Shown here: piece after piece, positions 40,625 to 63,093 of the stretch
How the letters are laid out: every line of letters starts with the position of its first letter
How positions within the stretch are numbered: the first letter of the stretch is position 1
Assembly (NCBI GenBank): GCA_023150805.1
Contig: JAKLKF010000021.1
Location: 1-64,000, forward strand
DNA from: Myxococcota bacterium
GTDB taxonomy: Bacteria; Myxococcota_A; UBA796; UBA2385
DNA: 64,000 nt
Reading direction: 5' to 3'
Notes under the pieces: model-generated
The model's database searches: none
What the model was told of the DNA's origin: nothing
Seen by the model: the letters and a program-made list of their open reading frames with translations, nothing else
Position numbers and translations under genes: made by a program

Positions 40625-40627
40625 GGG

Positions 40628-43846: not shown

Positions 43847-43923
43847 CGGGCAAGACCTCAGTGGGGAGAAGAACCCCCGGCCAGCCTACGCAGTGATTCC
43901 GTCCGGATCAACCGCCCCCCGCC

Positions 43924-44736: not shown

Positions 44737-44763
44737 GGCGGCTCGGGTGGGAGAGCGCCTGGA

Positions 44764-45459
44764 CTAACACCCCGGCGGGGGCACCTCGGCCCCCCGCGCC
44801 CAGGTCAGCAGCAGGTCGCCGTGGCGCTGCCAGCCGGCGGGCCGCGGGGGCAGGCCCTCGACCCACCAGCGCAGGCTGCCCTCGGGGGCCAGGGGTCCGG
44901 GGCCGGGCAGCTCCAGCCGCACCGCGCGGGGGTCCAGCCGCAGGCCGGTCCGCAGGACCTTGAGCGCGGCCTCCCGCGCCGACCACAGCAGGTTGGCGCG
45001 CAGGGCCGGGTCGGGGCTGGCCCGCACGGCGGCCGCCTCGTCCGGCCAGAGCCACTGGTCGAGGAAGGCCTCGCTGCGCGGCTCGATCCGCTCCAGGTCG
45101 ACGCCGACGCCGAGTCCGACGCCAGCGGCGGCGGGGGCCAGGGCGGCGGGGGCCAGGGCGGCGGCGGCGTGCCCGTCGCGGTGGCTGATCGACAGCGACA
45201 GGGCCAGGGGGCGGCCGTCCAGCCAGGGCTCGGGGGCGCCGTCGGCGGCCGGACGGACGTCCAGCCGCGGCGCGGAAGACACGGGCAGCCCCAGGTGCAG
45301 GCAGAGCAGGCGCGCGGCGGCGTAGCGTCCCAGCAGGTGATCGCGGCGACGGCGCTCGGTGCGCAGGGCGAGGACGCGCGCCGCGGCTGCGGGGTGCAGC
45401 CAGCCCGGGTCGGCGGGCAGGTCGGCGGCCGAGACCAGCACCAGCAGCGGCGCGCTCAT
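44764..45459 (-). CDS. 4'-phosphopantetheinyl transferase (Sfp/EntD type)
   Basis: ATG at 45459. GVDLERI (GxDxE) and WSAREAALK (W/FSAKEA) motifs. ATGA overlap with the upstream GT4. Confidence 0.7.
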   Translation of the reverse strand: MSAPLLVLVSAADLPADPGWLHPAAAARVLALRTERRRRDHLLGRYAAARLLCLHLGLPVSSAPRLDVRPAADGAPEPWLDGRPLALSLSISHRDGHAAAALAPAALAPAAAGVGLGVGVDLERIEPRSEAFLDQWLWPDEAAAVRASPDPALRANLLWSAREAALKVLRTGLRLDPRAVRLELPGPGPLAPEGSLRWWVEGLPPRPAGWQRHGDLLLTWARGAEVPPPGC

Positions 45460-46562
45460 CGCCCCTGCCGCAGCGCCCGGTAGGCGGCCTCGTAGGCGGC
45501 GGCCATCACGGGCAGGTCGAAGCGCTCCCGGGCGACCCGGCGACCGCGCTGGCCCGCCTGCCGGGCTGCGGGCAGGTCGGTCAGCAGCGCGCGCAGGGCG
45601 CGAGCCAGCGCGGGGGGGTCGCGCGGCGGCACCAGGGCGCCGGTGGAGGCGTCGACCAGCTCGGGCACGCAGCCGACGGCGGTGGCGACGACGGGCAGGC
45701 CGGCGGAGAGGGCCTCCATCACGACGAGGGGGTTGCCCTCGTAGGTCGACGACAGCACGAAGGCGTCGGCCGCGGCCATCAGCTCGGGCACGTCGCGCCG
45801 CACGCCCAGGAAGCGGACCCGCTCGCCCAGGCCCAGCGCGTCCGCCAGGGCCTCCAGCTCGGGCCGCAGCTCGCCCTCGCCGGCCAGCAGCAGCCGCAGC
45901 GGGGCCTCGCCCAGCGCGGGATCGGCCAGGGCGCGCAGCAGGGTGGCGTGGTCCTTCTGGGCGTTGAGCCGCCCGGCGGCCAGCAGCACGGGCAGGTCGT
46001 CGGCCAGGCCCAGCTCCCGGCGCACGGCCTGCCGGACCTCTGCCGGCCGCTGGAAGGCGGCGACGTCGACGCCGTTGGGGATGGTGAAGCGGGCGGGCAC
46101 CCCGTACAGCCGCTGCACGCTGTCGGCGACGGCCTGGCCGATGGCGACCGGCGCCACCCCCGCCCGGAAGGCCAGGTGGTGGGCGGCCTGGCCCAGGCGG
46201 TCGGCCTCGTGCTCCGCCAGGTTGTGCACGGTGTGCAGCACGGGGGCCCGGGGCCACGCCAGCCGGGCCGGCAGGACGTACTTCACGGTGTGCAGGTGGG
46301 TGTGGATCACGTCGGGCCGCAGCCGCCGCAGCAGCCGGGCCAGGCGGGGCACCACCCGCGGCTCCAGGCCCAGGCCCTTGTCCAGGAAGGCCAGTCCGAC
46401 CCCCGCGGCCCGCAGCTCGGCCTCGATGAAGCTGCCCGCCGGCGGGCCCAGCGCGCAGACGGTGACCCGGTGGCCGCGGGCCTGCAGGGCCACGGCGAGC
46501 AGGCCGACGATGCGCTCGGCGCCGCCGACCGTGAGCGAGGGGATCACCTGGAGGACGTGCAT
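45456..46562 (-). CDS. Glycosyltransferase family 4
   Basis: ATG at 46562 (MHVLQVIPSLTVGGAE). GT4 C-terminal EGNPLVVMEALSAGLPVV motif. ATGA overlaps at both ends. Confidence 0.8.
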   Translation of the reverse strand: MHVLQVIPSLTVGGAERIVGLLAVALQARGHRVTVCALGPPAGSFIEAELRAAGVGLAFLDKGLGLEPRVVPRLARLLRRLRPDVIHTHLHTVKYVLPARLAWPRAPVLHTVHNLAEHEADRLGQAAHHLAFRAGVAPVAIGQAVADSVQRLYGVPARFTIPNGVDVAAFQRPAEVRQAVRRELGLADDLPVLLAAGRLNAQKDHATLLRALADPALGEAPLRLLLAGEGELRPELEALADALGLGERVRFLGVRRDVPELMAAADAFVLSSTYEGNPLVVMEALSAGLPVVATAVGCVPELVDASTGALVPPRDPPALARALRALLTDLPAARQAGQRGRRVARERFDLPVMAAAYEAAYRALRQGR

Positions 46563-48022
46563 CAGACCCGCCGCAGCCAGCGCAGGTCGCGGGGGTGCCA
46601 GGCGCCCACGAGGTAGCCCAGCACGGCGTAGACGAGGGCGCCGACGGCGACCTGGAGCAGGACGTGGAAGGGGGGCAACAGCAACAGGACGCCGCCCATG
46701 AGCAGCGAGGGCAGGGCCGCGCGCGCCACCATCGGCAGCACGCGGTAGCCCTCCAGCAGGGGCGCCATCCGCCAGTGCTTCCACAGCAGCAGCCCCACGT
46801 CGGTCAGCAACGTGGTGAAGGCCGCGCCCGCGGCCCCCCAGCGGGGGATGGCGTACAGGTTGGCCAGGATGTTGAAGGCCGCCGCCCAGAACACCCCGCG
46901 CGTGCGATCGGCCTGGCGGTTGAGGCTGGACAGGGTCATGCCGTAGGCGTTCTTGAGGAAGCGCAGCGGGATCATGGGCGCCATGATCACGAAGGCGACC
47001 GAGGCCGCGGCGAACTCCTCGCCGCCCATCAGCACGACCAGGGGCTCGGCCAGCACGACCCCGCCCACCGCCGCGGGCATCGAGATGGCGAGCAGCACGC
47101 GGGCGGTGCGGGTCAGCTCCTCGCCGGCGGCGGCCGGGTCGCCCAGGTGGCGGGCCATGCGCGGGAAGACGCCGGTGGTGATGGTGTCGGCGACCTGGGG
47201 CAGCAGGGCGATGACGATGGTGGCCGCGCGGTAGAGCCCGACCTCGGCCTCGCCGCGCATCTGCTGGAGCATGATGACGTCGACGCTGAGGTAGACGCTG
47301 GTGAACAGGGCGTTGAGCCCGAAGGGCACCGAGCGGCGCAGCAGGCCGGGGACCTCGGCCGCCCCCTGGCGCAGCGGCAGCCGCCCGACCTCGCGGGCGT
47401 AGACGACCAGGATGATGCCCAGGGTGACCAGGGCGTCGATGACCTGGGCGCCGAAGACGGCGACGACGTCGAGCCCGGCCTGGAGCAGGACCAGGGTGGC
47501 CGCGACCAGGACCATGCGCCCGACGATGTGGCCGCCCGCGCCGAGCCCCATGCGCCGCAGGGCGTGGAAGCTGGCCACCGGCATCATCGCCAGCGAGCGC
47601 AGGCCCAGCGCCAGGGCGCCGACCGCGGCGGCGGTCACCACCAGGGGGCGGCCGTCGCCCAGCCAGGCCCAGCCGACGATGGCGGCGGCCGTGACGGTCG
47701 AGAGCAGGGCCGTCGCCAGCAGGCCGGCGGCGACCGAGCGGGGCAGCAGCGACTCGTCGCGCGAGATCTCGGCGTTGAGCAGCCGGTCCATGCCCATGTA
47801 GGAGCCGAAGGCGAACAGCCCCACCAGGGTCGTGACGTAGCCGTAGATGCCGAAGGGCTCGACGCCCAGGGCGCGCATCACGATCACGTTGACCACGAAG
47901 CCGGCGCCCAGGCGGAAGGCCTGGCTGATGCCCAGGAAGATCAGGTTCCCGCCGCGACGGAGCGCGGCGCTCCCGCCCCGCGACCCGGCCGCCGCGCCCG
48001 ACGGCTCAGGCGTGCCGGACAT
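46562..48022 (-). CDS. wzx: Wzx-type polysaccharide flippase (MOP superfamily)
   Basis: 486 aa, 12-14 helix polysaccharide_biosynth protein architecture. Confidence 0.75.
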   Translation of the reverse strand: MSGTPEPSGAAAGSRGGSAALRRGGNLIFLGISQAFRLGAGFVVNVIVMRALGVEPFGIYGYVTTLVGLFAFGSYMGMDRLLNAEISRDESLLPRSVAAGLLATALLSTVTAAAIVGWAWLGDGRPLVVTAAAVGALALGLRSLAMMPVASFHALRRMGLGAGGHIVGRMVLVAATLVLLQAGLDVVAVFGAQVIDALVTLGIILVVYAREVGRLPLRQGAAEVPGLLRRSVPFGLNALFTSVYLSVDVIMLQQMRGEAEVGLYRAATIVIALLPQVADTITTGVFPRMARHLGDPAAAGEELTRTARVLLAISMPAAVGGVVLAEPLVVLMGGEEFAAASVAFVIMAPMIPLRFLKNAYGMTLSSLNRQADRTRGVFWAAAFNILANLYAIPRWGAAGAAFTTLLTDVGLLLWKHWRMAPLLEGYRVLPMVARAALPSLLMGGVLLLLPPFHVLLQVAVGALVYAVLGYLVGAWHPRDLRWLRRV

Positions 48023-49334
48023 CCTCGACCTCCTGGTGCACCACGGCCAGGGTGAAGCCCAGCACCAGGTAGGCCATGGCCAGCGTGAGCAGGCCGAGGG
48101 TCACCGCCATCAGGGCGATGGCCGCCAGGCCCAGCGCGGCGCCCAGCACGCGGGCCCGCCCCTGGGGGTCCCGGGCGCGCCGGTAGCCCCGCGCCAGGGT
48201 GCGGGTCACGGCCAGGCCCAGCACCGCCGTCGCCAGCAGGCCGACGATCCCCTGCTCGCAGGCGATCTGCAGGTAGGTGTTGTGCGGCGGCAGCAGGTGG
48301 CCTTCCAGCGGGATGAAGCCGCTCTCGGTCTGGAACTCGCCGGGGCCGACGCCCAGCAGCGGGTGCTCCACGAACAGGTCCCAGGCCTGGCGCCCCAGCT
48401 CGGCCCGCTCGTTCAGGCTGTTGTCCTCCACCGCGGCCGTGCCGGTCAGCTTGTCCACCAGCGTGCGGTACCGGGACAGCGCGGCGTCCACGTCGACCGC
48501 CACCGGAGCGGCGACCAGCGCGGCCAGGGCGGCCAGCGACAGCTCGCCGCGCCGGTGGCGGACCAGCAGCACCGACAGGGGCAGCACCACCATCGCCGCC
48601 ACGAAGGCCGCCCGGGACTGGGTCATCATGATGGCGATCGGCGGCAGCCCGAGCATCGCCAGGCGCAGCGGCCGGGCCAGGGCGTGGTCGTCCCAGGCCA
48701 GCCCGCCCAGCAACCAGGGGGTCAGCAGCAGCAGCATGGCCCCCCACTCGTTGGGGTCGCCCATCGTGCCGGTCGACCGCCCCCCGCCGCTGGCCGCCGC
48801 CATGTTCGAGAGCAGGATGAGCGCCAGGGCGATGGCGCAGGCGCGGTAGACCCCCGCGAGGTCGGCCTCGGCCAGCGCGGCGTAGACCAGCCCCACCAGC
48901 ACGGTGAGCATGGCCAGGCCCGCCAGGTCGAAGATGCCGTAGTGCATGGACCCCACGACCGCGATCGACAGCCCGGTGGCCACGACCATCGTCAGCAGTC
49001 CCCCCAGCACCGGGTGCCAGCGGACCGGCTTGCGCCCGGTCAGCATCGCGTGCGCCGCCCACATGCCCAGGCTGCCCAGCACCGCCAGCTTCGAGGCCGT
49101 CACCGGCAGCCGGGCCACGTCGATGCCCGCCACCCCCGCCTGGTCGAAGAGCATCGCGACGTACATCAGCCCGACCAGGAAGGGCGGCGAGGACAGGCCC
49201 AGCCAGGCCACGACGAGGGCGCCCAGCAGCAGGGCCGGGAGGACCGGCGAGACGGCCACGGCGCCCCCCGCGAGCAACCCCAGCCCCATCGGCACCAGGC
49301 CCCGGCGCGACGCCGGCCACCGGGCCCCGGTCAT
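48006..49334 (-). CDS. Wzy-type polymerase / O-antigen ligase family membrane protein
   Basis: ATG at 49334. Polytopic, with a large periplasmic loop and the O-antigen-ligase-like region (MTQSRAAFVAAMVVLPL). Confidence 0.65.
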   Translation of the reverse strand: MTGARWPASRRGLVPMGLGLLAGGAVAVSPVLPALLLGALVVAWLGLSSPPFLVGLMYVAMLFDQAGVAGIDVARLPVTASKLAVLGSLGMWAAHAMLTGRKPVRWHPVLGGLLTMVVATGLSIAVVGSMHYGIFDLAGLAMLTVLVGLVYAALAEADLAGVYRACAIALALILLSNMAAASGGGRSTGTMGDPNEWGAMLLLLTPWLLGGLAWDDHALARPLRLAMLGLPPIAIMMTQSRAAFVAAMVVLPLSVLLVRHRRGELSLAALAALVAAPVAVDVDAALSRYRTLVDKLTGTAAVEDNSLNERAELGRQAWDLFVEHPLLGVGPGEFQTESGFIPLEGHLLPPHNTYLQIACEQGIVGLLATAVLGLAVTRTLARGYRRARDPQGRARVLGAALGLAAIALMAVTLGLLTLAMAYLVLGFTLAVVHQEVEDVRHA

Positions 49335-51454
49335 GCGGAGGGCGTGGACGGCCCCGCCGCGGCCGGGGGCGCAGCCCCTTCTTGGCGCTGGCCGTAGTAG
49401 GGCCGGTCCAGCCCGTAGCGCTTCGCCTCGCGGGAGATGGGCAGGTCGTTGAGCACGACGCCCAGCACGCGCGCGCCGGTCTGCCGCAGGCGGGCCAGGG
49501 TCTGGGCGACGATGGCGCGCGAGGGCAGGCCGCGCCGCACGACGACGAGCACCCCGTCGGTGTGCGAGGCCATCGCGGCGGCGTCGGCGAGCATCCCGGC
49601 GGGGGGGGTGTCGATGATGACGACCTTGTAGGTCTCGCCCAGCAGGTCGAGCACGTCGTCCATGGCCTGCGAGGCCAGCAGCTCGTTGGGCAGGTCGACG
49701 CCGGCGCCGACGGTCATCGCGTGCAGGTTCGGGATCGCCGTCGGCCGGACGAAGCGCAGCGGGTCGCGGGGGTCGGCCAGCGCCTCGGCCACGCCGGGCT
49801 CGGGCGGCAGGCCCAGCACCTGGTGCACCCGGGGCGCCCGCAGGTCCCCCTCGAAGAGCAGCACGCTCAGGCCGAGCTGGGCGTAGGCCACGGCCAGCCC
49901 GGCGGCGACGGTGGTCTTGCCCTCGCCTTCCATGGTGCTGGTCACCAGCAGGCGGCGGCTGCGGCCCCTCCCGATGGTGGAGATCAGCACGCCGCGCAGC
50001 GCCCGGAAGGACTCGGCGTAGACCGAGCGGGGGTGGTCGAGCAGGTAGAGCGCGCGCTGCTCGGGGCGGGTCTCGCCGGGCAGCGAGGGGATGGCCCCCA
50101 GCAGCGTCTCCCCGAGCAGGCCCTGCACGTCGCCCGGCGTGCCGATGCTCTCGTCGAGGCGGTGCCGCAGCAGCGCCAACCCGAAGCCGCCCCCCAGGCC
50201 CACGAACAGCGCCATGCCCATGTTGAGCGGCACGTTGGGGCGCGTCGGCCGGGAGGGCGGCTGGGCCAAGTCCACCACCCGCACGTCGTTGAGCTGGGTG
50301 TGCGCCTGCAGGTCGACCTCGGTCCCCCGCTGGCCCAGCGCGTCGTAGACCTGCCGGGCGCGCTCGTGCTCCATCTTCAGCCGGGAGTACTCCTCCTGCA
50401 GGCGCTGCTTGTCGAGCAGCTCGCCCTTGACCGAGGACAGCTCCTCCTCCAGGCGGGTCTCCTGCCGCCGCAGCGTGTTCACCCGGCTGCGCTCGGCGTC
50501 GACCGCGCGCGCGACCTCGGCGGCCAGCATCTCCTCGACCCGGGCCTGGTGGGCCAGGGCGCGGCGGTGCTCGGGGTGCTGGTCCCCGTAGCGGGCCAGC
50601 ACCTGGGCCGACTGCGCCACCACCTGGGCGTGCTCCTCGGCCAGGGCGTTGAGGGTCGGGTCGTCGAACATGCCCGCCAGGACGTCGGTGTCGCCGGCCC
50701 GCAGCAGCCGCTGGTGCTCGTAGAGGCGGGTCTCGAGCAGGACCCGCTCGGTGGTGGTGTCGCCATAGGCCTGCTGCAGCGCCGAGAGGCGGGAGCTGAT
50801 CCCGTCGATCCGCTCCTCGATGTCGACGACGTCCTGCTCCTCCTTGAACTGCAGGAGCGCGGCGCTGGCCTGGTCGACCGACTGCAGGTACTGGTCGCTG
50901 CGGTTCTCGATCCACACCTTCGTGTCGCGCGCGGCGTCCCGCCGGGCGTCCAGGTTGCCCTCCTGGTAGACCTCGGCCACCAGGTTGGCGAGCGCGGCGG
51001 CGCGCTCGGGGTCGGCATGGGCGACCCGGATCTCGACGAGCTGGGTGTCCTCCCGGGGGCCGGCCGAGAGCTTGCGCCCCAGCCGGTCCACGTCGTCGGA
51101 CGTCGGCCGCAGGTCGTCGAAGCCCTGCTGGTTGTAGCGTCGGAGCGCTTCTTCCCGGACCACCCGGCTCTGGATGATCTGCACCTGGGTGCGCGCCCGC
51201 TCCCGCCCCTCCATGTAGCCGCCGGCGTCGGACTGCACGACCTCGCGCACCGCGATCTCCTGGCCCGCGCGCGGCAGCAGGTGGACCACGGTGACCGCCT
51301 CGTACTCCCGATCCGCCAGGGCGGTGCCGACGCCGGCCGCGACCAGCGAGGCGCCGAGGAAGCCCAGGAAGGTCACCCTCTGCTGGCGGATCACCTCCAG
51401 CAGGTGGCCGAGGTCCAGCCAGGGATCGGGCGGGCGGTGGGACGAGGTGCTCAC
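49331..51454 (-). CDS. wzc: Polysaccharide co-polymerase / tyrosine autokinase (Wzc, PCP-2a)
   Basis: GTG at 51454. N-terminal transmembrane segment, Wzz periplasmic coiled-coil, second transmembrane segment. Cytoplasmic kinase Walker A TSTMEGEGKTT and Walker B VVIIDTPP. Confidence 0.85.
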   Translation of the reverse strand: MSTSSHRPPDPWLDLGHLLEVIRQQRVTFLGFLGASLVAAGVGTALADREYEAVTVVHLLPRAGQEIAVREVVQSDAGGYMEGRERARTQVQIIQSRVVREEALRRYNQQGFDDLRPTSDDVDRLGRKLSAGPREDTQLVEIRVAHADPERAAALANLVAEVYQEGNLDARRDAARDTKVWIENRSDQYLQSVDQASAALLQFKEEQDVVDIEERIDGISSRLSALQQAYGDTTTERVLLETRLYEHQRLLRAGDTDVLAGMFDDPTLNALAEEHAQVVAQSAQVLARYGDQHPEHRRALAHQARVEEMLAAEVARAVDAERSRVNTLRRQETRLEEELSSVKGELLDKQRLQEEYSRLKMEHERARQVYDALGQRGTEVDLQAHTQLNDVRVVDLAQPPSRPTRPNVPLNMGMALFVGLGGGFGLALLRHRLDESIGTPGDVQGLLGETLLGAIPSLPGETRPEQRALYLLDHPRSVYAESFRALRGVLISTIGRGRSRRLLVTSTMEGEGKTTVAAGLAVAYAQLGLSVLLFEGDLRAPRVHQVLGLPPEPGVAEALADPRDPLRFVRPTAIPNLHAMTVGAGVDLPNELLASQAMDDVLDLLGETYKVVIIDTPPAGMLADAAAMASHTDGVLVVVRRGLPSRAIVAQTLARLRQTGARVLGVVLNDLPISREAKRYGLDRPYYGQRQEGAAPPAAAGPSTPSA

Positions 51455-51575
51455 GCGCGACGCCTATCCCGCGGGCACCTGCCCAGCGGGCCGGCCAGCT
51501 TCACCGGATGTCTCCGAACGCGCCGGCCTGTCGCGGCCGCTGGCCGCGGGGGCACCGACTGGCGATATTGCCGCC

Positions 51576-52574: not shown

Positions 52575-52596
52575 AGCGACGCGCTACGCTGCCCGC

Positions 52597-53709: not shown

Positions 53710-53742
53710 ACGCGCGTCGTCCCCGCGCAGGGAGGAGCGACC

Positions 53743-53991
53743 ATGGCGACCCGGAAGCAGATCCAGGACCTGTTCACTGCGGCCTTGGGCCTGCCGGCCG
53801 AGACCGACTTCGCGACCCTGGCCTACCGCGGCGTGCCGCAGTGGGACTCGGTGGCGCACATGAGCCTGGTCGCGCGGCTGGAGGCGGCCCTGGGCATCAT
53901 GCTCGAGACCGACGACGTGCTCGACATGAGCAGCTTCGACGAGTGCCTGCGCATCCTGGCGCGCCACGGGGTGCGGGTCGAGGAGCCCTGA
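53743..53991 (+). CDS. Acyl carrier protein
   Basis: 82 aa with the phosphopantetheine attachment motif GVPQWDSVAHMSLVARLE (DS-L). SD ggagga upstream. Confidence 0.7.
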   Translation: MATRKQIQDLFTAALGLPAETDFATLAYRGVPQWDSVAHMSLVARLEAALGIMLETDDVLDMSSFDECLRILARHGVRVEEP

Positions 53992-53998: not shown

Positions 53999-55396
53999 TC
54001 AGCTTCCCGGTCGCACCAGCACCGTCTGCAGGGTCTTGAGCACGATCAGCACGTAGAGCAGCGGGCTCATCTCCTGGATGGAGAACAGCTCGTACCGCAG
54101 CTTCTCGGCGGCGTCCTCGGTGGTGGCGCCGTAGCGGTACATCACCTGGGCCCAGCCGGTGACCCCCGGCTTCACGGCGAAGCGCAGCGCGTAGAAGGGG
54201 ATCTGCTCCTCGAGCTGGCGCACGAAGTGCTCGCGCTCCGGCCGCGGGCCGACCATGGACATGTCGCCGCGCAGCACGTTCCAGAACTGGGGCAGCTCGT
54301 CGATGCGCGTGCGCCGCAGGATGCGGCCGACCCGGGTCACCCGGGGGTCGCTGGCCCCCTGGGACCAGACCGCGCCCGTCTTCGACTCCGCGTCCCGCCC
54401 CATGGTCCGCAGCTTGATGATGGTGAAGGGCCGCTCGCCCTTGCCCAGCCGCTCCTGCAGGAAGAACGCGGGCCCCGGCGTCTCCAGCCGGATGACGATC
54501 CCCGCGACCAGGATCACCGGCGCCGACAGCAGCAAGCCCACCACGGCGAGCGCCATGTCCGCGAGCCGCTGGGTGGTGGCGATGAGCGGCCGGTCGGCGT
54601 TGAAGCCCGGCCCGAAGATGAGCCAGGTGTCGGCGACGTGGTCGATGGGCACCTTGCCCGTCAGCCGCTTGTACAGCGAGGGCATGTCGACGATGGTCAG
54701 CCCCCGCGACTTGCACTCCAACAGCTGCTGGGTGAGCCGCTCGTGCATCCCCCCGCGGATCGCCACGATCACCAGGTCGATGCGGTGCTTGCGGGTGAGC
54801 TTGACCAGGTCGACCGCCGGTCCCAGCACCAGCATCCCGGTCGGCGAGTGCAGGACCCGGTCGTCGACGAAGCCCACCAGGTCGTAGACCGAGCCGTGCT
54901 CCTGGTGGGTGCGCACCACCTCGGCGATCGCGTGGCCCGCGCGCCCGGCGCCCACGACCAGGCAGCGGTGCCGGCGCGTCGGCAGCGGGCGCACCACCGT
55001 CAGGGCCACGCGCCACCCGGGCAGCAGCACGCCGAAGCACAGGCTGGAGAGCGCCGCCACCCCGCGCCCGATCCACCAGTGCGGGAACAGGTAGAAGAGC
55101 GTGGCCTGCGCGAGGAAAGCCGCCGCGATCGCGAGCAGCAGCCGCAGCAGCTCCCTGCCGCGCCGGTAGTCCCGCCCCGGGTCGAAGGCGTCCGCCACGT
55201 AGAGCAGGACCAGGTGGGTCAGGACGAAGAAGACCGTCGCGCCGGTCTCTTCGGACAGGATCCGCGCCAGGCTGGCGGCGCCCTGGTCCAGGCCCAGGCG
55301 CAGGGCGTGGCCCACCTGGAGGGCGACCAGGGCCATCACCACGTCGCCCGCGACCATCAGGAGCTGCCGGCGCTGGTAGGGGATGCCCAGGACCAT
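53999..55396 (-). CDS. Undecaprenyl-phosphate sugar phosphotransferase (WbaP/EpsZ-like priming glycosyltransferase)
   Basis: ATG at 55396. N-terminal transmembrane helices, NAD-binding-like middle domain, and the bacterial sugar transferase domain (IDELPQFWNVLRGDMSMVGPRP). Confidence 0.85.
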   Translation of the reverse strand: MVLGIPYQRRQLLMVAGDVVMALVALQVGHALRLGLDQGAASLARILSEETGATVFFVLTHLVLLYVADAFDPGRDYRRGRELLRLLLAIAAAFLAQATLFYLFPHWWIGRGVAALSSLCFGVLLPGWRVALTVVRPLPTRRHRCLVVGAGRAGHAIAEVVRTHQEHGSVYDLVGFVDDRVLHSPTGMLVLGPAVDLVKLTRKHRIDLVIVAIRGGMHERLTQQLLECKSRGLTIVDMPSLYKRLTGKVPIDHVADTWLIFGPGFNADRPLIATTQRLADMALAVVGLLLSAPVILVAGIVIRLETPGPAFFLQERLGKGERPFTIIKLRTMGRDAESKTGAVWSQGASDPRVTRVGRILRRTRIDELPQFWNVLRGDMSMVGPRPEREHFVRQLEEQIPFYALRFAVKPGVTGWAQVMYRYGATTEDAAEKLRYELFSIQEMSPLLYVLIVLKTLQTVLVRPGS

Positions 55397-56631
55397 CAGG
55401 TGCTCTCCGGATCCGCCGGCAGGCCCCCCGGCGCCCGCTCGACGGCCAGCGGACCGGGCCGCGGCCCGCCCACCTCGGCGATCACCTCCTCGTACACCGC
55501 GCGGGTGCCCTCCAGCATGCGCCGCACGGTGAAGCGAGCCTCGTAGGCCGCACGCCCCGCGTCGCCCTGCCGCTGCCGCAGGGCCGGGTCCTGGAGCAGG
55601 GCCTGCAGCGCCGCGGCCAGGCCCGCCTCGTCCCCGCGGCCGACCAGGGCCCCGGTCCGCCCTGGCGCCACCGCCTCGCGCACGCCCCCGACGTCGCTGG
55701 CCACCACCGGCAGGCCGGCGCGCATCGCCTCCAGGACGACCAGGGGGAAGCCCTCCTGCCGGGAGATCAACAGCCCCACCTGCGCCTGCGCCATCAGCTC
55801 GGGCACGTCCAGCCGGGTGCCCAGCAGCTCGACCCGGTCGCGCAGCCCCAGCGCGTCGACGGTGCGCTCGACCGCTGGCCGGTCCGGCCCGTCCCCCACC
55901 AGGCGCAGCCGCCACGGGGCCGCGACCCGCGACAGCGCCCGCAGCAGCAGCGTGGGGTCCTTGGGCGCGGCCAGGCGCGCCACCATCAGCAGGACCGGCA
56001 CCCCCTCCCGTCCCGGACGGGCGCGGGGCGCGACGTCCGCCACCCCGTTGTGCACGACCCGCACCTGGGCGGGCCGCGCCACCCGGTAGCGCAAGCCCAC
56101 CTCGCGGTCGGCCTCGCTCACGACGATGAAGCGCCGCGTCCAGCGCGCCGCCGCCGCCTCCAGCGGGACGGCCAGGGCCTTGCGTCGCCAGGCGATCCCG
56201 TCGGAGAAGGCCCAGGAGTGGGCCGTGTGGATCGCCGGCCGCCCCTCCAGGCGCGCCGCCAGGCGCCCCAGCAGCCCGGCCTTGCTGCTGTGGGTGTGCA
56301 CCAGGTCCGGCCGCACCTGCCGGATGAGGCGCCGCAGGGAGCGGAGGGCCGGCAGGTCGCGGGCAGGGTCGATCTCCCGCTCCAGCTCGGGCACCACGTG
56401 GACCGGCAGGCCCAGCGCGCGCGCCTGGTCCGTCAGCCAGCCCTGGTCCCCGCAGGCCAGGACCGGGTCGACCGCCCCGCGCAGGCCGGCCAGGAGGTCG
56501 CGCACGTGCACCTGGGCGCCGCCCGGCTCGGCGCGGGTGATGACCACCAGCGCCGTGGGCCGCTCGCCCCGCCCGCCGTGCCGCCCGGCTGCGTCCACCT
56601 GCTGCCCCTCTGCCGCCCGCCCCGGGACCAC
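55396..56631 (-). CDS. Glycosyltransferase family 4 (start uncertain)
   Basis: LVVITRAEPGGAQ N-terminus and EGFPLVVLEAMRAGLPVVASDVGG C-terminus. ATGA overlap with wbaP. Confidence 0.75.
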   Translation of the reverse strand: MVPGRAAEGQQVDAAGRHGGRGERPTALVVITRAEPGGAQVHVRDLLAGLRGAVDPVLACGDQGWLTDQARALGLPVHVVPELEREIDPARDLPALRSLRRLIRQVRPDLVHTHSSKAGLLGRLAARLEGRPAIHTAHSWAFSDGIAWRRKALAVPLEAAAARWTRRFIVVSEADREVGLRYRVARPAQVRVVHNGVADVAPRARPGREGVPVLLMVARLAAPKDPTLLLRALSRVAAPWRLRLVGDGPDRPAVERTVDALGLRDRVELLGTRLDVPELMAQAQVGLLISRQEGFPLVVLEAMRAGLPVVASDVGGVREAVAPGRTGALVGRGDEAGLAAALQALLQDPALRQRQGDAGRAAYEARFTVRRMLEGTRAVYEEVIAEVGGPRPGPLAVERAPGGLPADPEST

Positions 56632-56717
56632 CCCGCGGGGGCACCCAAGGTAGCCCGTCCGGCCTCCGGCCGGCGACCGCGCGCGCTACCCTCGGCGCGA
56701 AGGGCAGGAGGAGGCCG

Positions 56718-58157
56718 GTGTACGAGGTGCGGGCGCCACAGGCCCACGGCGTGCGGCCCGCGCTGTGGCACGAGGGCCGGGTGATCACCCACGAGGAGCT
56801 GGCCGACGCGGTCGAGGCGCTGGCCGGCAGCCTGCGGGACCGCGGCCCCGGGCTGGTCCTGGCCTTCTGCCGCGGCCGCCCCGGCACCGTGCTGGGCCTG
56901 CTGGCCGCCCGCGCCGCCGGCCTGCCGGTCGCGCTGGTCGACGCCAACCTGGCCGCGCCGCAGCGCCGGGCCCTGGTCGAGGCCTACCGCCCGGAGTGGA
57001 TCCTCGACGACCGCCCCGAGGACGACGCGGTCGAGCGCCTGCCCGTGGAGGACGCCGTGCTCGGCCGGCGCCCCGGGCCCCCCGGCCCCGCCCCTCACCC
57101 CGACCTGGCCCTGCTCCTGTCCACCTCGGGCACCACCGGCAGCCCCAAGCTGGTCCGGCTCTCGGCCGCCGCCGTCGCCCACAACGCCCGGGCCATCGCC
57201 GCGGCCCTGGACCTCGGCCCCGAGGAGCGGGCCCTGCAGGCCCTCCCCCTGCACTACTCCTACGGGCTCTCCGTCCTGCACAGCCACCTGGTCGCCGGCG
57301 GCAGCGTGGCGCTGACCGAGCGCTCGCCCATGGAGCGGGGCTGGTGGCAGGACCTCGCCGACGCCGGCTGCACCAGCCTGCCCGGCGTGCCCACCGGCTG
57401 GCGCCACCTGCTGCGCCTGGGACTGCTCGACCGCGCACCGCCCGGCCTGCGCACGTGCACCCAGGCCGGCGGGCGGCTGGAGCCGGAGCGCGTCCGCCTC
57501 CTGGCGAGCTGGGCCGCGGCGCGCGGCGGCGATCTGCGCGTCATGTACGGGCAGACCGAGGCCACAGCCCGCATCGCCGTGATGCCGCCGGGGGCCAGCC
57601 TGCGCCGGCCCGAGGCGGCGGGCCGGGTGCTCGCGGGCGGCGCGCTGTGGATCGAGGCGCCCGGCTCGGCCGGACCGGAACGGCCTCCCGAGGTGGGAGA
57701 GGTCGTCTACCGCGGCCCCAACGTGATGATGGGCTACGCCCGGCGGCGCGCAGACCTGGCCCGGGGCGACGAGCTGCAGGGCGTGCTGCGCACCGGCGAC
57801 CTGGGCCGGCTGGACGAGGCGGGGCTGCTGGTGCTGGCCGGGCGCCGCAGCCGCCTGGCCAAGGTCCACGGCCTGCGCCTGGAGCTGGACGAGGTGGAGG
57901 CGCTGCTGCAGCCCCACGGCCCGACGGCCGCGCTCGAGGGTGACGACGAGCTGGTCCTGGCCTGCGCCTGGGGCAGCCCGGCGGAGCTGGGCGCCCTGGC
58001 GCCGACGCTGGCGGTCCGCTTGCGCCTGCCCGCCGCCGCCCTGCGCCTGGTCCACCTCGACGCGCTGCCCCTGTCGGCCAGCGGCAAGATCGACTACCCG
58101 GCGCTGCGCCGGGAGCTGCTGCCCGCCCCCCTCCCCGCCGCCGTGGACCCGCGATGA
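56718..58157 (+). CDS. AMP-dependent synthetase/ligase (adenylating enzyme)
   Basis: GTG at 56718. Core motifs LLSTSGTTGSPK, YGQTE and GDLGRLDEAGLLVLAGRR. Confidence 0.8.
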   Translation: MYEVRAPQAHGVRPALWHEGRVITHEELADAVEALAGSLRDRGPGLVLAFCRGRPGTVLGLLAARAAGLPVALVDANLAAPQRRALVEAYRPEWILDDRPEDDAVERLPVEDAVLGRRPGPPGPAPHPDLALLLSTSGTTGSPKLVRLSAAAVAHNARAIAAALDLGPEERALQALPLHYSYGLSVLHSHLVAGGSVALTERSPMERGWWQDLADAGCTSLPGVPTGWRHLLRLGLLDRAPPGLRTCTQAGGRLEPERVRLLASWAAARGGDLRVMYGQTEATARIAVMPPGASLRRPEAAGRVLAGGALWIEAPGSAGPERPPEVGEVVYRGPNVMMGYARRRADLARGDELQGVLRTGDLGRLDEAGLLVLAGRRSRLAKVHGLRLELDEVEALLQPHGPTAALEGDDELVLACAWGSPAELGALAPTLAVRLRLPAAALRLVHLDALPLSASGKIDYPALRRELLPAPLPAAVDPR

Positions 58158-59242
58158 CGCTCGACGCCCTGCTCGCCGCCACGCCGGGCCAGGTCTCGCT
58201 GGCCGAGAAGGAGGCCGCACTGCTGGCGCTGCTGTCCGAGCGCACCGCCTGGCACCGGCAGCGCTGCCCGGCCTACGCCCGCCTGCTCGACCAGCTCCAC
58301 CCGGGCGTCCACGCCCCGGCCCGCCTCGCCGACCTGCCCTGGCTGCCCGTGGGCCTGTTCAAGAGCCACGAGCTGGCCAGCGTGCCGCCGGCCGAGCGCT
58401 TCAAGGTCCTGCACTCCAGCGGCACCACCGGCCAGGCGCGCAGCCGCATCGTGCTCGACCGCGCCACCGCCGCCCTGCAGGCCCGGGGCCTCGCCGCCTG
58501 CCTGCGCCCGGTGCTGGGCCCCCGGCGGCTGCCCATGCTGCTGGTCGAGAGCGCCGACCTGCTCACCGACGCGCGCGCCGCCTCGGCCCGCGGGGCCGGT
58601 GTGCTCGGGATGATGGCCCTGGGTCGCGACCACCTCTTCGCGCTGGACTCCGACCTGGAGCTGCGGATCCCGGCCCTGGCGGACTGGCTCTCGCAGCACG
58701 GGCACGCGCCCTTCGTCGTGTTCGGCTTCACCTTCCTGGTGTGGCGCCACCTCGCCCTGGCCGCCGAGGGGCGGGGCCTGGACATGTCCCAGGCCATCCT
58801 CGTCCACTCCGGCGGGTGGAAGAAGCTCCAGGACCAGGCCGTCGACCGGGCCACCTTCCGCGCGGGCCTGCGCGAGCGCCTGGGCATCGAGCGCGTGCAC
58901 GACTTCTACGGCATGGTCGAGCAGGTCGGCAGCGTCTTCCTGGAGGGCGAGGACGGGCTGCTGTACCCGCCGCCCTTCGGCGAGGTGCTGGTCCGCGACC
59001 CGCTGCGCTTCGAGGTGCTGCCCGACGGCGAGGAGGGCCTGCTGCAGGTGTTGAGCCCCCTGCCCCTGAGCTACCCGGGCCACAGCCTGCTCACCGCCGA
59101 CCTGGGGGTCGTGCACCGGGTCGAGCGGGGTCCCGGCGGGGTCCCGGCCCGCGGCCTGCAGGTGCGGGGCCGGGTGCCCCGGGCCGAGCTGCGCGGCTGC
59201 AGCGACACCCACGCCGTCGGCGCCGCCGGGGGCGCGCCGTGA
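58154..59242 (+). CDS. LuxE-like acyl-protein synthetase family protein
   Basis: ATGA overlap. SSGTTG nucleotide-binding motif (VLHSSGTTGQARSRIV) and overall LuxE-like length and layout. Confidence 0.65.
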   Translation: MTLDALLAATPGQVSLAEKEAALLALLSERTAWHRQRCPAYARLLDQLHPGVHAPARLADLPWLPVGLFKSHELASVPPAERFKVLHSSGTTGQARSRIVLDRATAALQARGLAACLRPVLGPRRLPMLLVESADLLTDARAASARGAGVLGMMALGRDHLFALDSDLELRIPALADWLSQHGHAPFVVFGFTFLVWRHLALAAEGRGLDMSQAILVHSGGWKKLQDQAVDRATFRAGLRERLGIERVHDFYGMVEQVGSVFLEGEDGLLYPPPFGEVLVRDPLRFEVLPDGEEGLLQVLSPLPLSYPGHSLLTADLGVVHRVERGPGGVPARGLQVRGRVPRAELRGCSDTHAVGAAGGAP

Positions 59243-60492
59243 GCGCCGCGGCGCCGCCGACGGTCCAGCGCCTGGCCCCGGAGCCCGGGCCGGTCGCCGT
59301 GCCCACGCTGCTGCGCGACCTGGCCGAGGCGCCCGACGGCCGCCCCTTCGACGCCGACCGGCAGGCCCTCTGCGCCGACCTCAGCGCCCGGCTGCTCGAC
59401 CACCCCGCGGCCCGGCGCTTCCCCGAGCTGGTGGCGCTGGGCTGGTGGCTGCGCCCCGCCGAGGTGACGCGGCTGGCGCGCGCCTTCGCGGCGCTGGAGG
59501 ACGAGCGCTCGGTGCTCTGCCCCCGGGGCCTGGCCCTGCACCTGCCGCCGGCCAACGTCGACACGCTGTCGGTGCACTCCTGGGCGCTCTCGCTGCTGGT
59601 CGGCAACCGCAACCTGGTCCGCCTCTCCTCCCGCCGTTCCCCGGTCAGCGACGCCGTGTCGGAGGTGCTCTCCGCCGCGCTGGCCGCCGCCGCGCCCGCG
59701 CTGCGCGCCGGCAACCAGCTCGTCTCCTACCCGCACGACGCCGCCGTCACCGCCGCCCTCTGTGCGGGGATCGACGCCCGGGTCGTCTGGGGAGGGGACG
59801 CCACCGTCGCCGCCCTGCGCGCCGTGCCGATGCCCGCCACCGCGGTCGACCTGTCCTTCGGCGACCGGTGGTCGCTGGCGGTGGCCCGCGCCGGGGCCTG
59901 GCGGGACCTGTCGGAGGAGGCCCGCGACCAGCTCGCCCAGCGGCTGTTCAACGACGCGTACTGGTTCGACCAGCAGGCCTGCGCCTCGCCGCGGATGCTG
60001 GCCTGGGTGGGAGCGGGCGGCCATGAATGTGGGCGGGAGCTGTTCACCCGGGTCGCCGCCCACGCGCGCGCCCGGGGCTGGCAGCCCGACGCGGCCACCA
60101 GCCTGCAGAAGCTGGAGTTCGCCGCGCGGGCCGTGCTGGACGCCGAGGTCCGCGCCCTGTTCCGCCCCGACCCGGCCGTCACCGTGATCGAGCTGCACCA
60201 CGCCCGGGGGCTGTCCCGCGCCCACGAGGGCGGTGGGCTGTTCTACCAGGTCGAGCTGCCCGACCTGGAGGCGCTGCTGCCGCTGGTCCAGCGGCGCGAC
60301 CAGACCCTGGTCGCCTTCGGCTTCTCCGACCCCGAGCTCCGCGCGCTGGCGCGCAGCCTGGGCGGGCGCGGCATCGACCGCATCGTGCCCTTCGGGCAGG
60401 CCCTGGCCTTCCACCGCTACTGGGACGGTCTGGATCTCTTGCAGGCCCTCTCCCGTCGAGTAGGGGTGCAGACCGACCCCGGCCTCCCCTGA
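59239..60492 (+). CDS. LuxC-like acyl-CoA/acyl-protein reductase family protein
   Basis: GTGA overlap. ~417 aa. Aldehyde-dehydrogenase-fold-like with conserved Cys region (DQQACASPRMLAWVG). Only the C-terminal third of ORF 57940..60492 is protein-like. Confidence 0.65.
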   Translation: MSAAAPPTVQRLAPEPGPVAVPTLLRDLAEAPDGRPFDADRQALCADLSARLLDHPAARRFPELVALGWWLRPAEVTRLARAFAALEDERSVLCPRGLALHLPPANVDTLSVHSWALSLLVGNRNLVRLSSRRSPVSDAVSEVLSAALAAAAPALRAGNQLVSYPHDAAVTAALCAGIDARVVWGGDATVAALRAVPMPATAVDLSFGDRWSLAVARAGAWRDLSEEARDQLAQRLFNDAYWFDQQACASPRMLAWVGAGGHECGRELFTRVAAHARARGWQPDAATSLQKLEFAARAVLDAEVRALFRPDPAVTVIELHHARGLSRAHEGGGLFYQVELPDLEALLPLVQRRDQTLVAFGFSDPELRALARSLGGRGIDRIVPFGQALAFHRYWDGLDLLQALSRRVGVQTDPGLP

Positions 60493-60493
60493 C

Positions 60494-62482
60494 ATGCCCG
60501 TCGACCTGCCCGAAGACCGCCAGCCCCTCGCCGAGCGCCTGCAGGACCTGCGGCGCGCGGCGCCCGGCTTCTGGCGACGCCAGGTCAAGACCGCGCGGCA
60601 GGCCCGCTACGGCTGGCGCCACGACAAGCAGATCACCTTCGTCTTCGGCTGCCAGCGCTCCGGCACGAAGATGCTGATGCGCGTCCTGGACCACAGCCCC
60701 GCCATCCGCATCTTCCACGAGAACCACGCCTCGGCCTTCCAGGACTTCCAGCTCCGCGCCGACGGCGTGCTGCGCGCCCTGGTGGCGCTCAACCCCGCGC
60801 CGGCCCAGGTCTTCAAGCCCATCTGCGACAGCCACAAGGCCGACCTGCTGCTGGACCGCTTCGACGACGCCCGGGGCCTGTGGATCTACCGGCACTACGA
60901 CGACGTGGCGAACTCGGCGGACGTCAAGTGGGGCGACCACCAGCGCCAGCTCGCCGACGCGGTCGCGAAGGGCGAGCTGGACACCTGGGGCTGGCGCACC
61001 GAGCGGCTGCCCCCGGAGGTGATCGCGGACATCCGCCGGGTGTGGCGGCCCGACCTGACGCCGTCCGAGGGCGCCCTGCTGTTCTGGTACCTGCGGAACA
61101 GCTTCTTCTTCACCCTGGACCTGCCCGCCCACCCGCGGGTCCACCTCGTCCGCTACGAGGACCTGGTCACCCGGCCCGAGCCGTCCTTCGCCCGGGTCTT
61201 CCAGGTGGTCGGCGCGCCCTTCGACCCCTCGCTGGTGGCCGGCGTGCGCAGCACCAGCGTCGGCCGCCGCCCCGCCCCTGCCGCCAGCCCCGAGATCCGC
61301 GCCCTGTGCCAGGGCCTGCTGGAGCGCCTGGACGCCGTCGCCGCCACCCAGGTCCAGGCCTGGACCCCGCCCCCCCCGCGGCCCCTGACCTCCCCGGTCC
61401 TGGTGCTCAACAACACGCTGGGGGTCGGCGGGGCCGAGCGCTACATCGTCACGGTGGCCAACTGGCTGGCCGCCCACGGCAGCCGCGTCGTGGTCGCCGC
61501 CGAGCACGGCCCCATGGTCGACCAGCTCGACCCCGCCGTGCGCTTCGTCGACGTGCCCCTGGCCCGCGTGCGGGCCGACCTGCCAAGGGCCGCCCGCCAG
61601 GTGCGGCGCCTCATCGAGCAGGAGCGCCCCGCCGCCATCGTCGCCAACTCGCTCGCCGTGACCTGGGTGGCGCGGGCCGCCCAGGGGCGCCGCCGGGTGC
61701 CCATCGTCAACGTCGCCCACGGCTGGCCGGCCGACCGCTACACCAGGGTCGGGCCCCTGATGCGGATCGCCGACGCGGTGGTCGCCGTCTCGCCCGAGGT
61801 CAAGCGCAAGCTCGTGGCCGGTGGCCTGGACGAGGGCCGCTGCACCGTGATCTTCAACGGGGTGGACTGCGCCCCCTTCCACCCGCGCCAGGGCCCGGCC
61901 CGGGACCAGGCCCGCGCGGCGATGGGCGCCGGCCCCGACGACCTGCTCGTGGTCAACCTCGGCCGCCTCTCGGCACAGAAGGCCCACCAGCACGTCGTCG
62001 AGATCGCCCGGCGCCTGCGGCAGGAGCTGCCCTCCCTGCGCTTCGCCGTCATCGGCGAGGGCGAGCGCCAGGACGAGCTGCAGGCCCGGATCGACGACCA
62101 GGACCTGGCCGACCGGGTGCGCCTGATGGGTCGGCGCATGGACGTGGCCGAGCTGCTGGGCGCCGCCGACCTCTTCCTGTCCACCTCGGACTGGGAGGGC
62201 ATGCCCCTGTCGATGATCGAGGGCATGGCCTCCGGCCTGCCGGTCGTGGCCACCGCCACCGAGGGCGTGGCCGAGTTGCTCGACGCCGAGAGCGGCGTCG
62301 TCGTGCCCGTGGGCGACGTGGCCGCCATGGCGAGCGCCGTGGCCGACCTGGCCCGCGATCCCGACCGCCGGCGCCACATGGGGCAGGCGGCCCGGGACCG
62401 GGCCCTGGCCAGGTTCAGCCACGACCGGATGGTGAGCGAGCTGGAGGCGGTCCTGGCGCGAGTGGGGGGTGCGCGGCGCTGA
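60494..62482 (+). CDS. Bifunctional sulfotransferase (N-terminal) / GT4 glycosyltransferase (C-terminal) fusion
   Basis: N-terminal 5'-PSB-like FVFGCQRSGTKMLMRVL and 3'-PB-like YRHYDDVANS. The C-terminal half is a full GT4 (LVLNNTLGVGGAERY ... EGMPLSMIEGMASGLPVVAT). Confidence 0.7.
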   Translation: MPVDLPEDRQPLAERLQDLRRAAPGFWRRQVKTARQARYGWRHDKQITFVFGCQRSGTKMLMRVLDHSPAIRIFHENHASAFQDFQLRADGVLRALVALNPAPAQVFKPICDSHKADLLLDRFDDARGLWIYRHYDDVANSADVKWGDHQRQLADAVAKGELDTWGWRTERLPPEVIADIRRVWRPDLTPSEGALLFWYLRNSFFFTLDLPAHPRVHLVRYEDLVTRPEPSFARVFQVVGAPFDPSLVAGVRSTSVGRRPAPAASPEIRALCQGLLERLDAVAATQVQAWTPPPPRPLTSPVLVLNNTLGVGGAERYIVTVANWLAAHGSRVVVAAEHGPMVDQLDPAVRFVDVPLARVRADLPRAARQVRRLIEQERPAAIVANSLAVTWVARAAQGRRRVPIVNVAHGWPADRYTRVGPLMRIADAVVAVSPEVKRKLVAGGLDEGRCTVIFNGVDCAPFHPRQGPARDQARAAMGAGPDDLLVVNLGRLSAQKAHQHVVEIARRLRQELPSLRFAVIGEGERQDELQARIDDQDLADRVRLMGRRMDVAELLGAADLFLSTSDWEGMPLSMIEGMASGLPVVATATEGVAELLDAESGVVVPVGDVAAMASAVADLARDPDRRRHMGQAARDRALARFSHDRMVSELEAVLARVGGARR

Positions 62483-62586
62483 GCGGCGGCGACGGAGCCA
62501 GCCCCGCCTCGCGCGCGTGATGGCGGCCCTGGCCGGTGATAGAGCCGCACCGTCCTTGCCCGTGCGGATCGCCCTTGGAGGCCGCC

Positions 62587-63093
62587 ATGCCCGCCGCTGC
62601 CCTCGCCACCCCGGAAGAAGACCCCGCCGAAGCCCTCCCCCTGCCCACGCTGCCGGTGATCCGCGACGGCTGCCTGGGCGACGCCCCGTCCCTCCGCGCG
62701 CTGGAGCTGCGCAGCTTCCCGGGCAACCACATGAGCCTGCGGCAGTTCCGCTTCCACCTGCGGAGCCCCCGGGCCCACTTGCTGGTGGCCGAGGTCGACG
62801 GCGCCCTGGTCGGCAGCGCCACCGTCCTGGTGCGGGCCAACTCGCGCCGGGCCCGCCTGTACTCGATCATGGTCGACCCCGCGGCGCGCGGCCTGGGGCT
62901 GGGCCGCAGCCTGCTCGCCCGCGCCGAGCAGGTCGCGCGCCAGGCGGGCGCCCGGCAGCTCTACCTGGAGGTCCGCCAGGACAACGCGGCCGCCATCGCC
63001 ATGTACGAGCGGCTGGGCTACCGCCGGATCGGCCAGGAAGCCGCCTACTACGACGACGGCGCGGACGCCTGGCGCTACGCGCGCGAGCTGTAG
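62587..63093 (+). CDS. GNAT family N-acetyltransferase
   Basis: SD ggaggc upstream of the ATG at 62587. Acetyl-CoA binding motif MVDPAARGLGLGRSLL. Confidence 0.7.
   Translation: MPAAALATPEEDPAEALPLPTLPVIRDGCLGDAPSLRALELRSFPGNHMSLRQFRFHLRSPRAHLLVAEVDGALVGSATVLVRANSRRARLYSIMVDPAARGLGLGRSLLARAEQVARQAGARQLYLEVRQDNAAAIAMYERLGYRRIGQEAAYYDDGADAWRYAREL

Follow-up and report, generated by a model that had tools for sequence, protein, structure and literature searches.

The 64,000-nucleotide stretch of contig JAKLKF010000021.1 analysed here (the window), from a Myxococcota bacterium, encodes near its right-hand end a 662-residue protein in which an N-terminal sulfotransferase (ST) domain is joined in frame to a C-terminal family 4 glycosyltransferase (GT4) domain. 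A preliminary description of this DNA had proposed such a fusion, and the list of open reading frames (ORFs), the coding base composition and Pfam matches confirm it. The gene begins with an ATG codon located 1 nt past the TGA of the upstream LuxC-like gene and ends with a TGA at 62480–62482. The GC fractions of its three codon positions are 0.77, 0.49 and 0.98 in a window of approximately 75% GC, the coding signature of such a genome. Two homologs of 83–88% identity (P0002 and P0003) start at the same position, and an NCBI protein identical over 100% of residues (P0001) is named only ‘glycosyltransferase [Myxococcota bacterium]’, the database annotation of the fusion family being simply ‘glycosyltransferase’. 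A spurious ORF or an assembly chimera is ruled out by the third-position GC signature, the identical NCBI protein and the more than 100 fused homologs of 50–88% identity.

The N-terminal domain matched the Pfam profile Sulfotransfer_3 (PF13469) over approximately residues 49–250 with 44.5 bits against a gathering cutoff of 27 (E 2.9e-11), a positive outcome for the profile comparison that had been suggested for it, and PF13469 is precomputed on more than 100 members of the family. When compared with the Protein Data Bank (PDB), both as a single sequence and as a 24-sequence profile, the N-terminal 300 residues matched sulfotransferases only, including TPST1 and TPST2, tick TPST, the ST domains of CurM and OLS, Stf9 and SULT1 enzymes. 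Membership of another P-loop family, which had been raised as an alternative, is thereby set aside. Both cofactor-binding motifs are present where they had been placed, the 5’-phosphosulfate-binding (5’-PSB) motif CQRSGTKMLMRVL at residues 53–65 (nt 60650–60688) and the 3’-phosphate-binding (3’-PB) motif YRHYDDVANS at residues 132–141 (nt 60887–60916), and given the above-cutoff Pfam match and the invariance of their key residues they are more than chance resemblances. The 3’-PB motif of sulfotransferases consists of an Arg followed by a Ser eight residues on, which the spacing of R133 and S141 fits. HMMER alignment of the segment FVFGCQRSGTKMLMRVLDHSPAIRIFHEN with TPST1 places R55-S-G-T on the 5’-PSB loop, and E76 pairs with the second of the two Glu residues in ‘GEE’. 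This Glu is the catalytic base of TPST, as in the TPST2 structure, making E76 the candidate base by homology. A catalytic or transition-state role may also fall to K108.

Conservation was assessed in two sets of sequences. Among 48 full-length family members, 52–88% identical to the window protein, the ST half retains F49-V-F-G-C-Q-R-S-G-T58, H75, E76, K108-P-I-C-D112, R133, V138, S141, W167, R168, W198, R201, N202 and Y221 without exception. In a second set of 36 sequences, which included stand-alone relatives down to 24% identity, the residues present in all 36 were G52, R55, S56, G57, T58, E76, R133, S141, W167, W198, R201 and Y221. This is the pattern that would be expected of an active enzyme dependent on 3’-phosphoadenosine 5’-phosphosulfate (PAPS).

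The GT4 half is complete, as had been described, with both Rossmann halves matched above threshold (Glyco_transf_4 at residues 311–459, 81.4 bits; Glycos_transf_1 at residues 471–635, 120.7 bits). Foldseek matched the C-terminal ~380 residues to BshA, HepE, MshA, PimB’, PglA and WaaG with target-normalised template modelling (TM) scores of 0.84–0.86 for BshA, HepE and MshA; with PimB’ counted in, the superpositions over ~380 columns give 0.81–0.86. In addition, phmmer matched the GT4 half to BshA with an E of 1e-19. Residues G312-G-A-E-R316, R491, K496, E568 and E576 are invariant in the 48 family members, the last two forming the EX7E motif. BshA, MshA, PimB’ and HepE (of the Anabaena heterocyst-envelope polysaccharide) share the fold and the EX7E motif, but are single-domain proteins of 16–22% identity, so that donor and acceptor specificity is not transferable from them. 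NCBIfam names for the fusion protein are of GT4 type only and all sub-threshold, the best being the PEP-CTERM/XrtA ‘stp2’ family TIGR03088 at 152 against 409 bits. Membership of an exosortase/PEP-CTERM system was rejected on this score and on that of the polyprenyl-phosphate glycosyl-phosphotransferase (PGT) of the locus against TIGR03013 (382 against 393), and no exosortase family was matched among the called genes of the window.

The two halves of the protein are equally conserved, with a mean column identity of 63% for the ST half and 60% for the GT4 half. A full-length AlphaFold2 (AF2) model was obtained with a predicted local distance difference test score (pLDDT) of 93.2. The query-normalised TM score of this model in Foldseek comparison with the PDB never exceeded 0.50, and hence no solved chain spans both domains. 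No signal peptide or transmembrane segment was found in the fusion protein, the top 19-residue hydropathy of 1.68 lying within the GT4 Rossmann core. The helix that precedes the ST domain (residues 12–39) carries a net charge of +6 and a hydrophobic moment above that of 99.6% of shuffles, and R29, Q30, Q36 and G40 are invariant across the fused clade. Its cationic, amphipathic character suggests that it is possibly a membrane-interface element.

The surrounding polysaccharide locus

Pfam and NCBIfam identify the last 29 kb of the window, at its right-hand end, as a polysaccharide locus of Wzx/Wzy type, with a priming PGT, Wzx, Wzy, a polysaccharide co-polymerase (PCP/Wzc) and an outer-membrane polysaccharide export protein (OPX/Wza) all present (Table 1). 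The account of an exopolysaccharide (EPS) locus that also encodes acyl-handling enzymes and GNATs holds, in that an AMP-dependent ligase (AMP-ligase), LuxE-like and LuxC-like proteins, a carrier protein, a phosphopantetheinyl transferase (PPTase) and two GNAT-type genes were identified. The earlier interpretation is supported by sequence and structure comparison for both the domain architecture and the type of locus, the sulfated product being a prediction.

The fusion is tightly linked to the EPS cassette. In relatives only 55–59% identical, the fusion adjoins the same genes, namely Wza, GT4, Wzx, Wzy, Wzc, a protein resembling carbohydrate esterase family 4 (CE4), PGT and GT4, with the ST-GT4 gene divergent. 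In a tblastn census of 31 fused loci, 28 had a PGT ortholog alongside and 23 had Wzc, most of the loci lacking them having too little flanking sequence. The CE4-like protein, which has no obvious signal peptide in its sequence, carries an HSFSHP motif that aligns with PdaC, and its orthologs among L001–L031, of 53–70% identity, stand beside most fused loci. It is a possible N-deacetylation partner acting ahead of sulfation.

The GNAT-like gene and the genes for the carrier protein, AMP-ligase, LuxE and LuxC have a narrower distribution: of the 31 other fused loci, just two have them, L005 and L013, where the carrier-protein orthologs are 59–62% identical. This acyl module is present also in a locus without an ST (L067). 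The synteny census therefore identifies the module as an optional insertion to which the ST is not functionally tied, and together with L067 it rules out, as a general rule, a tie between the ST and the AMP-ligase/LuxE/LuxC/acyl carrier protein (ACP) module. The module may serve to decorate the polymer with an acyl or aldehyde group.

Table 1. Features of the fusion gene and of the polysaccharide locus, in window positions.
Feature	Position	Strand	Details
ST-GT4 fusion gene	60494..62482	+	662 aa plus TGA stop; from the ORF list; both end codons read off the sequence
N-terminal cationic amphipathic helix, aa 12-39	60527..60610	+	helical in both AF2 models
Sulfotransferase domain, aa ~45-289	60626..61360	+	
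5’-phosphosulfate-binding loop G52-C-Q-R-S-G-T58	60647..60667	+	invariant in 48 fused proteins; aligns with TPST1 RSGTT loop
E76, candidate catalytic base	60719..60721	+	invariant 36/36; aligns with second Glu of TPST1 ‘GEE’ (HMMER)
K108, Lys of K-P-I/L-C-D-S strand	60815..60817	+	35/36 conserved
3’-phosphate-binding motif R133-x7-S141	60890..60916	+	R133, S141 invariant 36/36
Pro-rich interdomain linker WTPPPPRPLTSP, aa 290-301 (12 residues)	61361..61396	+	coil in full-length model; block pLDDT 81
GT4 (GT-B) domain, aa 302-659	61397..62470	+	Pfam, Foldseek, phmmer
EX7E motif E568-x7-E576, EGMPLSMIE	62195..62221	+	E568, E576 invariant in 48 family members
Epimerase/dehydratase	35284-36294	-	
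GT4	36273-37514	+	
Low-GC island	~37515-43885		
Export/polymerisation block, Wza to Wzc	43924..51463	-	conserved beside fusion in relatives
Wza/OPX	43924-44763	-	Pfam Poly_export+SLBB
PPTase	44764-45504	-	Pfam ACPS
GT4	45456-46601	-	Pfam
Wzx	46562-48100	-	Pfam Polysacc_synt
Wzy	48006-49400	-	Pfam Wzy_C
Wzc-type PCP tyrosine kinase	49331-51463	-	Wzz+GNVR+ParA-like P-loop
Divergent CE4 (polysaccharide-deacetylase-like)	~51576-52574	+	Polysacc_deac_1 22.1 bits, just under cutoff 23.1
GNAT-like gene	to 53709	+	together with the carrier protein gene spans 52540-53991
Small carrier protein, 82 aa, ACP-like	53743-53991	+	translation, WDSVAHMSL Ser motif; no HMM match
Priming PGT	53999..55459	-	start approximate; Bac_transf 197 bits; TIGR03025 352 vs cutoff 296
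GT4, divergent from operon	55396..56685	-	Pfam; orthologs 56-69% identity in fused loci
Operon: AMP-ligase, LuxE-like, LuxC-like, ST-GT4, GNAT	56718-63093	+	
AMP-dependent ligase, first operon gene	56718..58157	+	start uncertain; Pfam AMP-binding 152 bits
LuxE-like acyl-protein synthetase	58154..59242	+	Pfam LuxE 136 bits
LuxC-like acyl-CoA reductase	59239..60492	+	Pfam LuxC 93 bits; GTG at 59239 overlaps LuxE stop
GNAT acetyltransferase, downstream of fusion	62536..63093	+	Pfam Acetyltransf_1 84 bits
Further GT4, running off window end	from 63075	-	

The low-GC island (GC 0.67–0.70, compared with ~0.75 in the surrounding DNA) interrupts the EPS locus, separating a GT4 gene from Wza. It contains a gene on the minus strand at 38312–40627 for a 771-residue protein with a PADLOC match to RdrB (E 2.7e-28) and a weak Pfam A_deaminase match, and a second minus-strand gene at 40628–43885 for a 1085-residue AAA_16 ATPase weakly matching RdrA (E 2.4e-5). 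The island looks like a RADAR-like anti-phage system inserted in the polysaccharide locus. Upstream of the locus are adjacent plus-strand genes for paralogous DUF4140+DUF4139 proteins (31529–33706 and 33721–35265), preceded by a transglutaminase-like gene (29420–30238) and a GH18 chitinase-like gene (30239–31528). Elsewhere in the window, minus-strand genes at 4554–10143 encode in a row a secreted-looking protein with six MopE-type Cu-binding repeats, an HmuY-like protein and a TonB-dependent receptor, a set suggestive of metal or haem uptake and with no connection to the fusion.

Spread and variants of the fusion

A word-indexed search returned more than 100 clusters (90% identity) with the PF13469 and GT4 architecture, at lengths of 625–680 residues. 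When one genome per GTDB species was scanned for the pattern, a relative of the ST domain was found encoded in 61 genomes, and in each of the closest 27 (L005–L031, 53–68% identity) this domain is joined in frame to the GT4. These 27 are metagenome-assembled genomes (MAGs), largely from lakes, with titles that read Myxococcota, ‘Deltaproteobacteria’ or Oligoflexia. Several high-GC, Myxococcota-like MAG contigs with the fusion or its relatives (L008, L015, L026, L027, L031, L032 and L039) bear the public record titles ‘Klebsiella pneumoniae’, ‘uncultured Klebsiella’, ‘Enterobacterales’ or ‘Bifidobacterium breve’; in these cases the metagenome bin has almost certainly been given the wrong taxonomic name. 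Relatives at or below 45% identity are stand-alone proteins of 270–320 residues from Pirellulales, Phycisphaerae, Prosthecobacter and other Verrucomicrobiota, Woeseia and others. When 1.84 billion representatives were searched with a profile, 2162 matched at E<=1e-3, 624 of them at E<=1e-30. In this search the fused clade was present as one full-length representative at 50% identity, separated by a gap in score from 437 to 297 bits below which nearly all matches are stand-alone proteins.

Other arrangements of the two domains were also found. In L034, a 6.9-Mb Myxococcota contig, and in L068, the orthologous GT4 is its own gene (48% and 52% identical to the GT half of the window protein, respectively) and immediately precedes a stand-alone ST (45% and 38%), an arrangement that by sequence reads as the ST-GT4 pair split and reversed in order. 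A permuted fusion, GT4 followed by ST, was seen on a single 2.9-kb contig (P0262), and in six PVC (Planctomycetes, Verrucomicrobia, Chlamydiae) and other genomes a GT4 gene lies directly downstream of a stand-alone ST. A tandem ST-ST protein of 634 residues from a Logan metagenome contig (P0264) combines a typical Sulfotransfer_3 domain (residues 19–251) with a member of the clade studied here (residues 377–628). Precomputed Pfam matches in the ST-less locus L067 include an 828-residue protein (13353–15839, minus strand) with Ser/Thr protein-kinase and FGE-sulfatase (formylglycine-generating-enzyme-like) domains.

Proposed role and alternatives

GT4 enzymes of Wzx/Wzy pathways work at the cytoplasmic side of the membrane, on intermediates carried by undecaprenyl diphosphate, and PAPS is a metabolite of the cytoplasm. 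With moderate confidence, the fusion protein is proposed to be a bifunctional ST-GT4 enzyme of a Wzx/Wzy EPS pathway that sulfates the lipid-linked repeat unit with PAPS. Such an enzyme would be soluble and membrane-peripheral. Its GT4 domain, a GT-B enzyme of the retaining type, would work on the cytoplasmic side of the inner membrane, transferring one sugar from a nucleotide-sugar donor to the repeat unit carried on undecaprenyl diphosphate. The tethered ST domain would use cytoplasmic PAPS to sulfate a hydroxyl (or amine) of the same lipid-linked oligosaccharide, on either the newly added sugar or a neighbouring one. Through the coupling provided by the fusion, each repeat unit would be sulfated ahead of flipping by Wzx, polymerisation by Wzy and export by Wzc and Wza. 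The analysis shows what the two domains are, that their catalytic-type residues and the fusion itself are conserved, and that the gene is tightly linked to the EPS cassette; that the enzyme uses PAPS, that its acceptor is a glycan, that it acts at the cytoplasmic stage and that the product is sulfated are inferences. The repeat unit is probably a tetrasaccharide, because the minimal cassette has one PGT and three GT4 domains. An extended form of the proposal, in which the nine-gene cassette (Wza, GT4, Wzx, Wzy, Wzc, CE4-like, PGT, GT4 and ST-GT4) is a self-contained system for co-synthetic sulfation whose CE4-like protein and ST perform NDST-like N-deacetylation and N-sulfation, or site-specific O-sulfation, to give a stoichiometrically sulfated, glycosaminoglycan-like EPS, is considered unlikely in that specific form.

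Several observations weigh against the proposed sulfation of a lipid-linked glycan. The full-length model has a predicted TM score (pTM) of 0.74, the Sulfotransfer_3 match is fragmentary, consisting of two stretches of a partial profile, and all carriers of the fusion are uncultured MAGs or metagenome contigs. The orthologous locus L067 has a GT4 that is 65% identical and lacks the ST domain, with no ST sequence in its 17 kb, implying that sulfation is dispensable for synthesis of the polymer. Genes for PAPS supply were not found in the regions covered. The preliminary description had suggested looking elsewhere in the genome for cysNC and other PAPS-synthesis genes; the called genes of the window gave no match to an APS kinase or ATP sulfurylase family, and neither did the ±10 kb flanks of two relatives for which Pfam matches are precomputed. 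A rough screen by tblastn in six frames, for which CysC and CysD of E. coli served as probes, returned nothing in the window or in 65 loci. Co-located PAPS genes have been called a hallmark of sulfated-polysaccharide clusters (PMC11641403), and cysD, cysN or cysC beside the sulfotransferase was seen neither among the called genes of the 64 kb nor, by the rough screen, in the 65 loci.

The partial profile coverage, the absence of PAPS-synthesis genes from the window and the flanks of relatives, and the existence of the ST-less ortholog would also be compatible with an ST domain that is non-catalytic, serving the GT4 as a PAP/PAPS or nucleotide sensor, a scaffold or a membrane-recruitment module while the polymer goes unsulfated. 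However, the cofactor-binding and catalytic-type residues are invariant down to 24% identity, stand-alone enzymes included, which is unusual for pseudo-enzymes, and in the stand-alone relatives (624 clusters at E<=1e-30) there is no GT4 that could be regulated. A non-catalytic role is therefore judged quite improbable.

A further point against a glycan acceptor is that the sulfotransferases structurally closest to the ST domain act on protein tyrosine or acyl-ACP rather than on carbohydrate. This ranking of folds, along with the adjacent acyl module, suggests an ST active on a non-glycan acceptor, either a hydroxy-acyl group on the carrier protein, as in CurM and OLS, or a protein tyrosine, as in TPST and RaxST. 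However, likeness of fold at 17–22% identity says little on the acceptor, and carbohydrate sulfotransferases (3-OSTs, NDST1, Stf0 and Stf9) are likewise strong matches. Moreover, the rarity of the acyl module beside the fusion (two of the 31 other fused loci) and its occurrence with the ST-less GT4 of L067 indicate that the ST and the acyl module are not co-inherited, whereas the ST and GT4 are. For these reasons a non-glycan acceptor is considered unlikely.

Sulfation of a lipid-linked repeat unit could also serve a product other than EPS. Wzx/Wzy machinery is common to O-antigen, capsule, EPS and myxobacterial spore-coat pathways, and the Wzy-like gene matches the O-antigen-ligase family Wzy_C, so the same chemistry might serve a different glycoconjugate built on undecaprenyl phosphate, for instance a glycolipid, a capsule, the polysaccharide of a spore coat or a chain resembling O-antigen. 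The Wza/OPX protein and the Wzc-type PCP with its kinase domain, however, mark secretion of the group-1-capsule/EPS type rather than that of lipopolysaccharide O-antigen, leaving this destination with a low probability, and it would alter the destination of the product but not the mechanism.

Comparison with known systems and significance

The experimentally supported bacterial model of a sulfated EPS is synechan, the product of the xss cluster of Synechocystis sp. PCC 6803 (PMC8205485), which resembles the present locus in being a Wzx/Wzy EPS cluster with PAPS-type STs and GTs. The STs of the xss cluster are described as separate proteins, with no fused or bifunctional enzyme mentioned, and the organism belongs to the Cyanobacteria rather than to the Myxococcota-type MAGs considered here (PMC8205485). 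The capsule cluster of Vibrio sp. KMM 8419 (PMC11641403) is also a bacterial cluster with STs and GTs, and its sulfated product is chemically proven; however, it is dependent on an ABC transporter (Kps), its STs are stand-alone and it contains extra copies of cysDNC, which were not found here. Other bacterial clusters for sulfated polysaccharides, with separate STs, include those of Cobetia and Pontiella and the predicted wps-1 of Actinoplanes (PMC13390465). Chemically proven sulfated polysaccharides of bacteria are few, and some authors call them essentially cyanobacterial (PMC13390465, PMC8205485).

Among individual enzymes, TPST1/2 and the ST domains of OLS and CurM (PDB 5wri, 3ap1, 4gox, 4gbm) are 17–22% identical to the window ST domain, act on peptides or acyl-ACP, and are in no case fused to a GT; the window protein differs further in its extra N-terminal amphipathic helix. 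Of the NDST1 and 3-O-sulfotransferase group (12–17% identity), NDST is a conceptual analogue in which an ST is fused to another glycan-processing domain, but it is a eukaryotic enzyme of the Golgi lumen, fused to a deacetylase and not to a GT, and acts on the finished polymer. No described ST-GT fusion was found in the literature searched, where papers naming both domain types have them as separate proteins, and fusions are not mentioned in a 2024 review of polysaccharide sulfotransferases. The fusion family thus has a conserved bifunctional architecture for which no description was found, built from domains and a pathway logic that are themselves ordinary.

Sulfated bacterial polysaccharides are wanted as non-animal replacements for heparin-like and carrageenan-like polymers. 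If the proposed role is correct, sugar addition would be physically coupled to sulfation within a compact, portable Wzx/Wzy cassette, which would explain a defined sulfation pattern written into each repeat unit and would offer a small, transplantable gene set for the microbial production of sulfated polymers. The ST-less orthologous locus, the split gene pairs and the permuted fusion are natural controls that make the hypothesis directly testable. Should the unlikely, extended form of the proposal with its nine-gene cassette also prove true, the protein would be the first bifunctional GT-sulfotransferase described, carried by a widespread clade of uncultured freshwater Myxococcota. The production of a sulfated matrix would, on the favoured reading, be extended to these uncultured freshwater bacteria.

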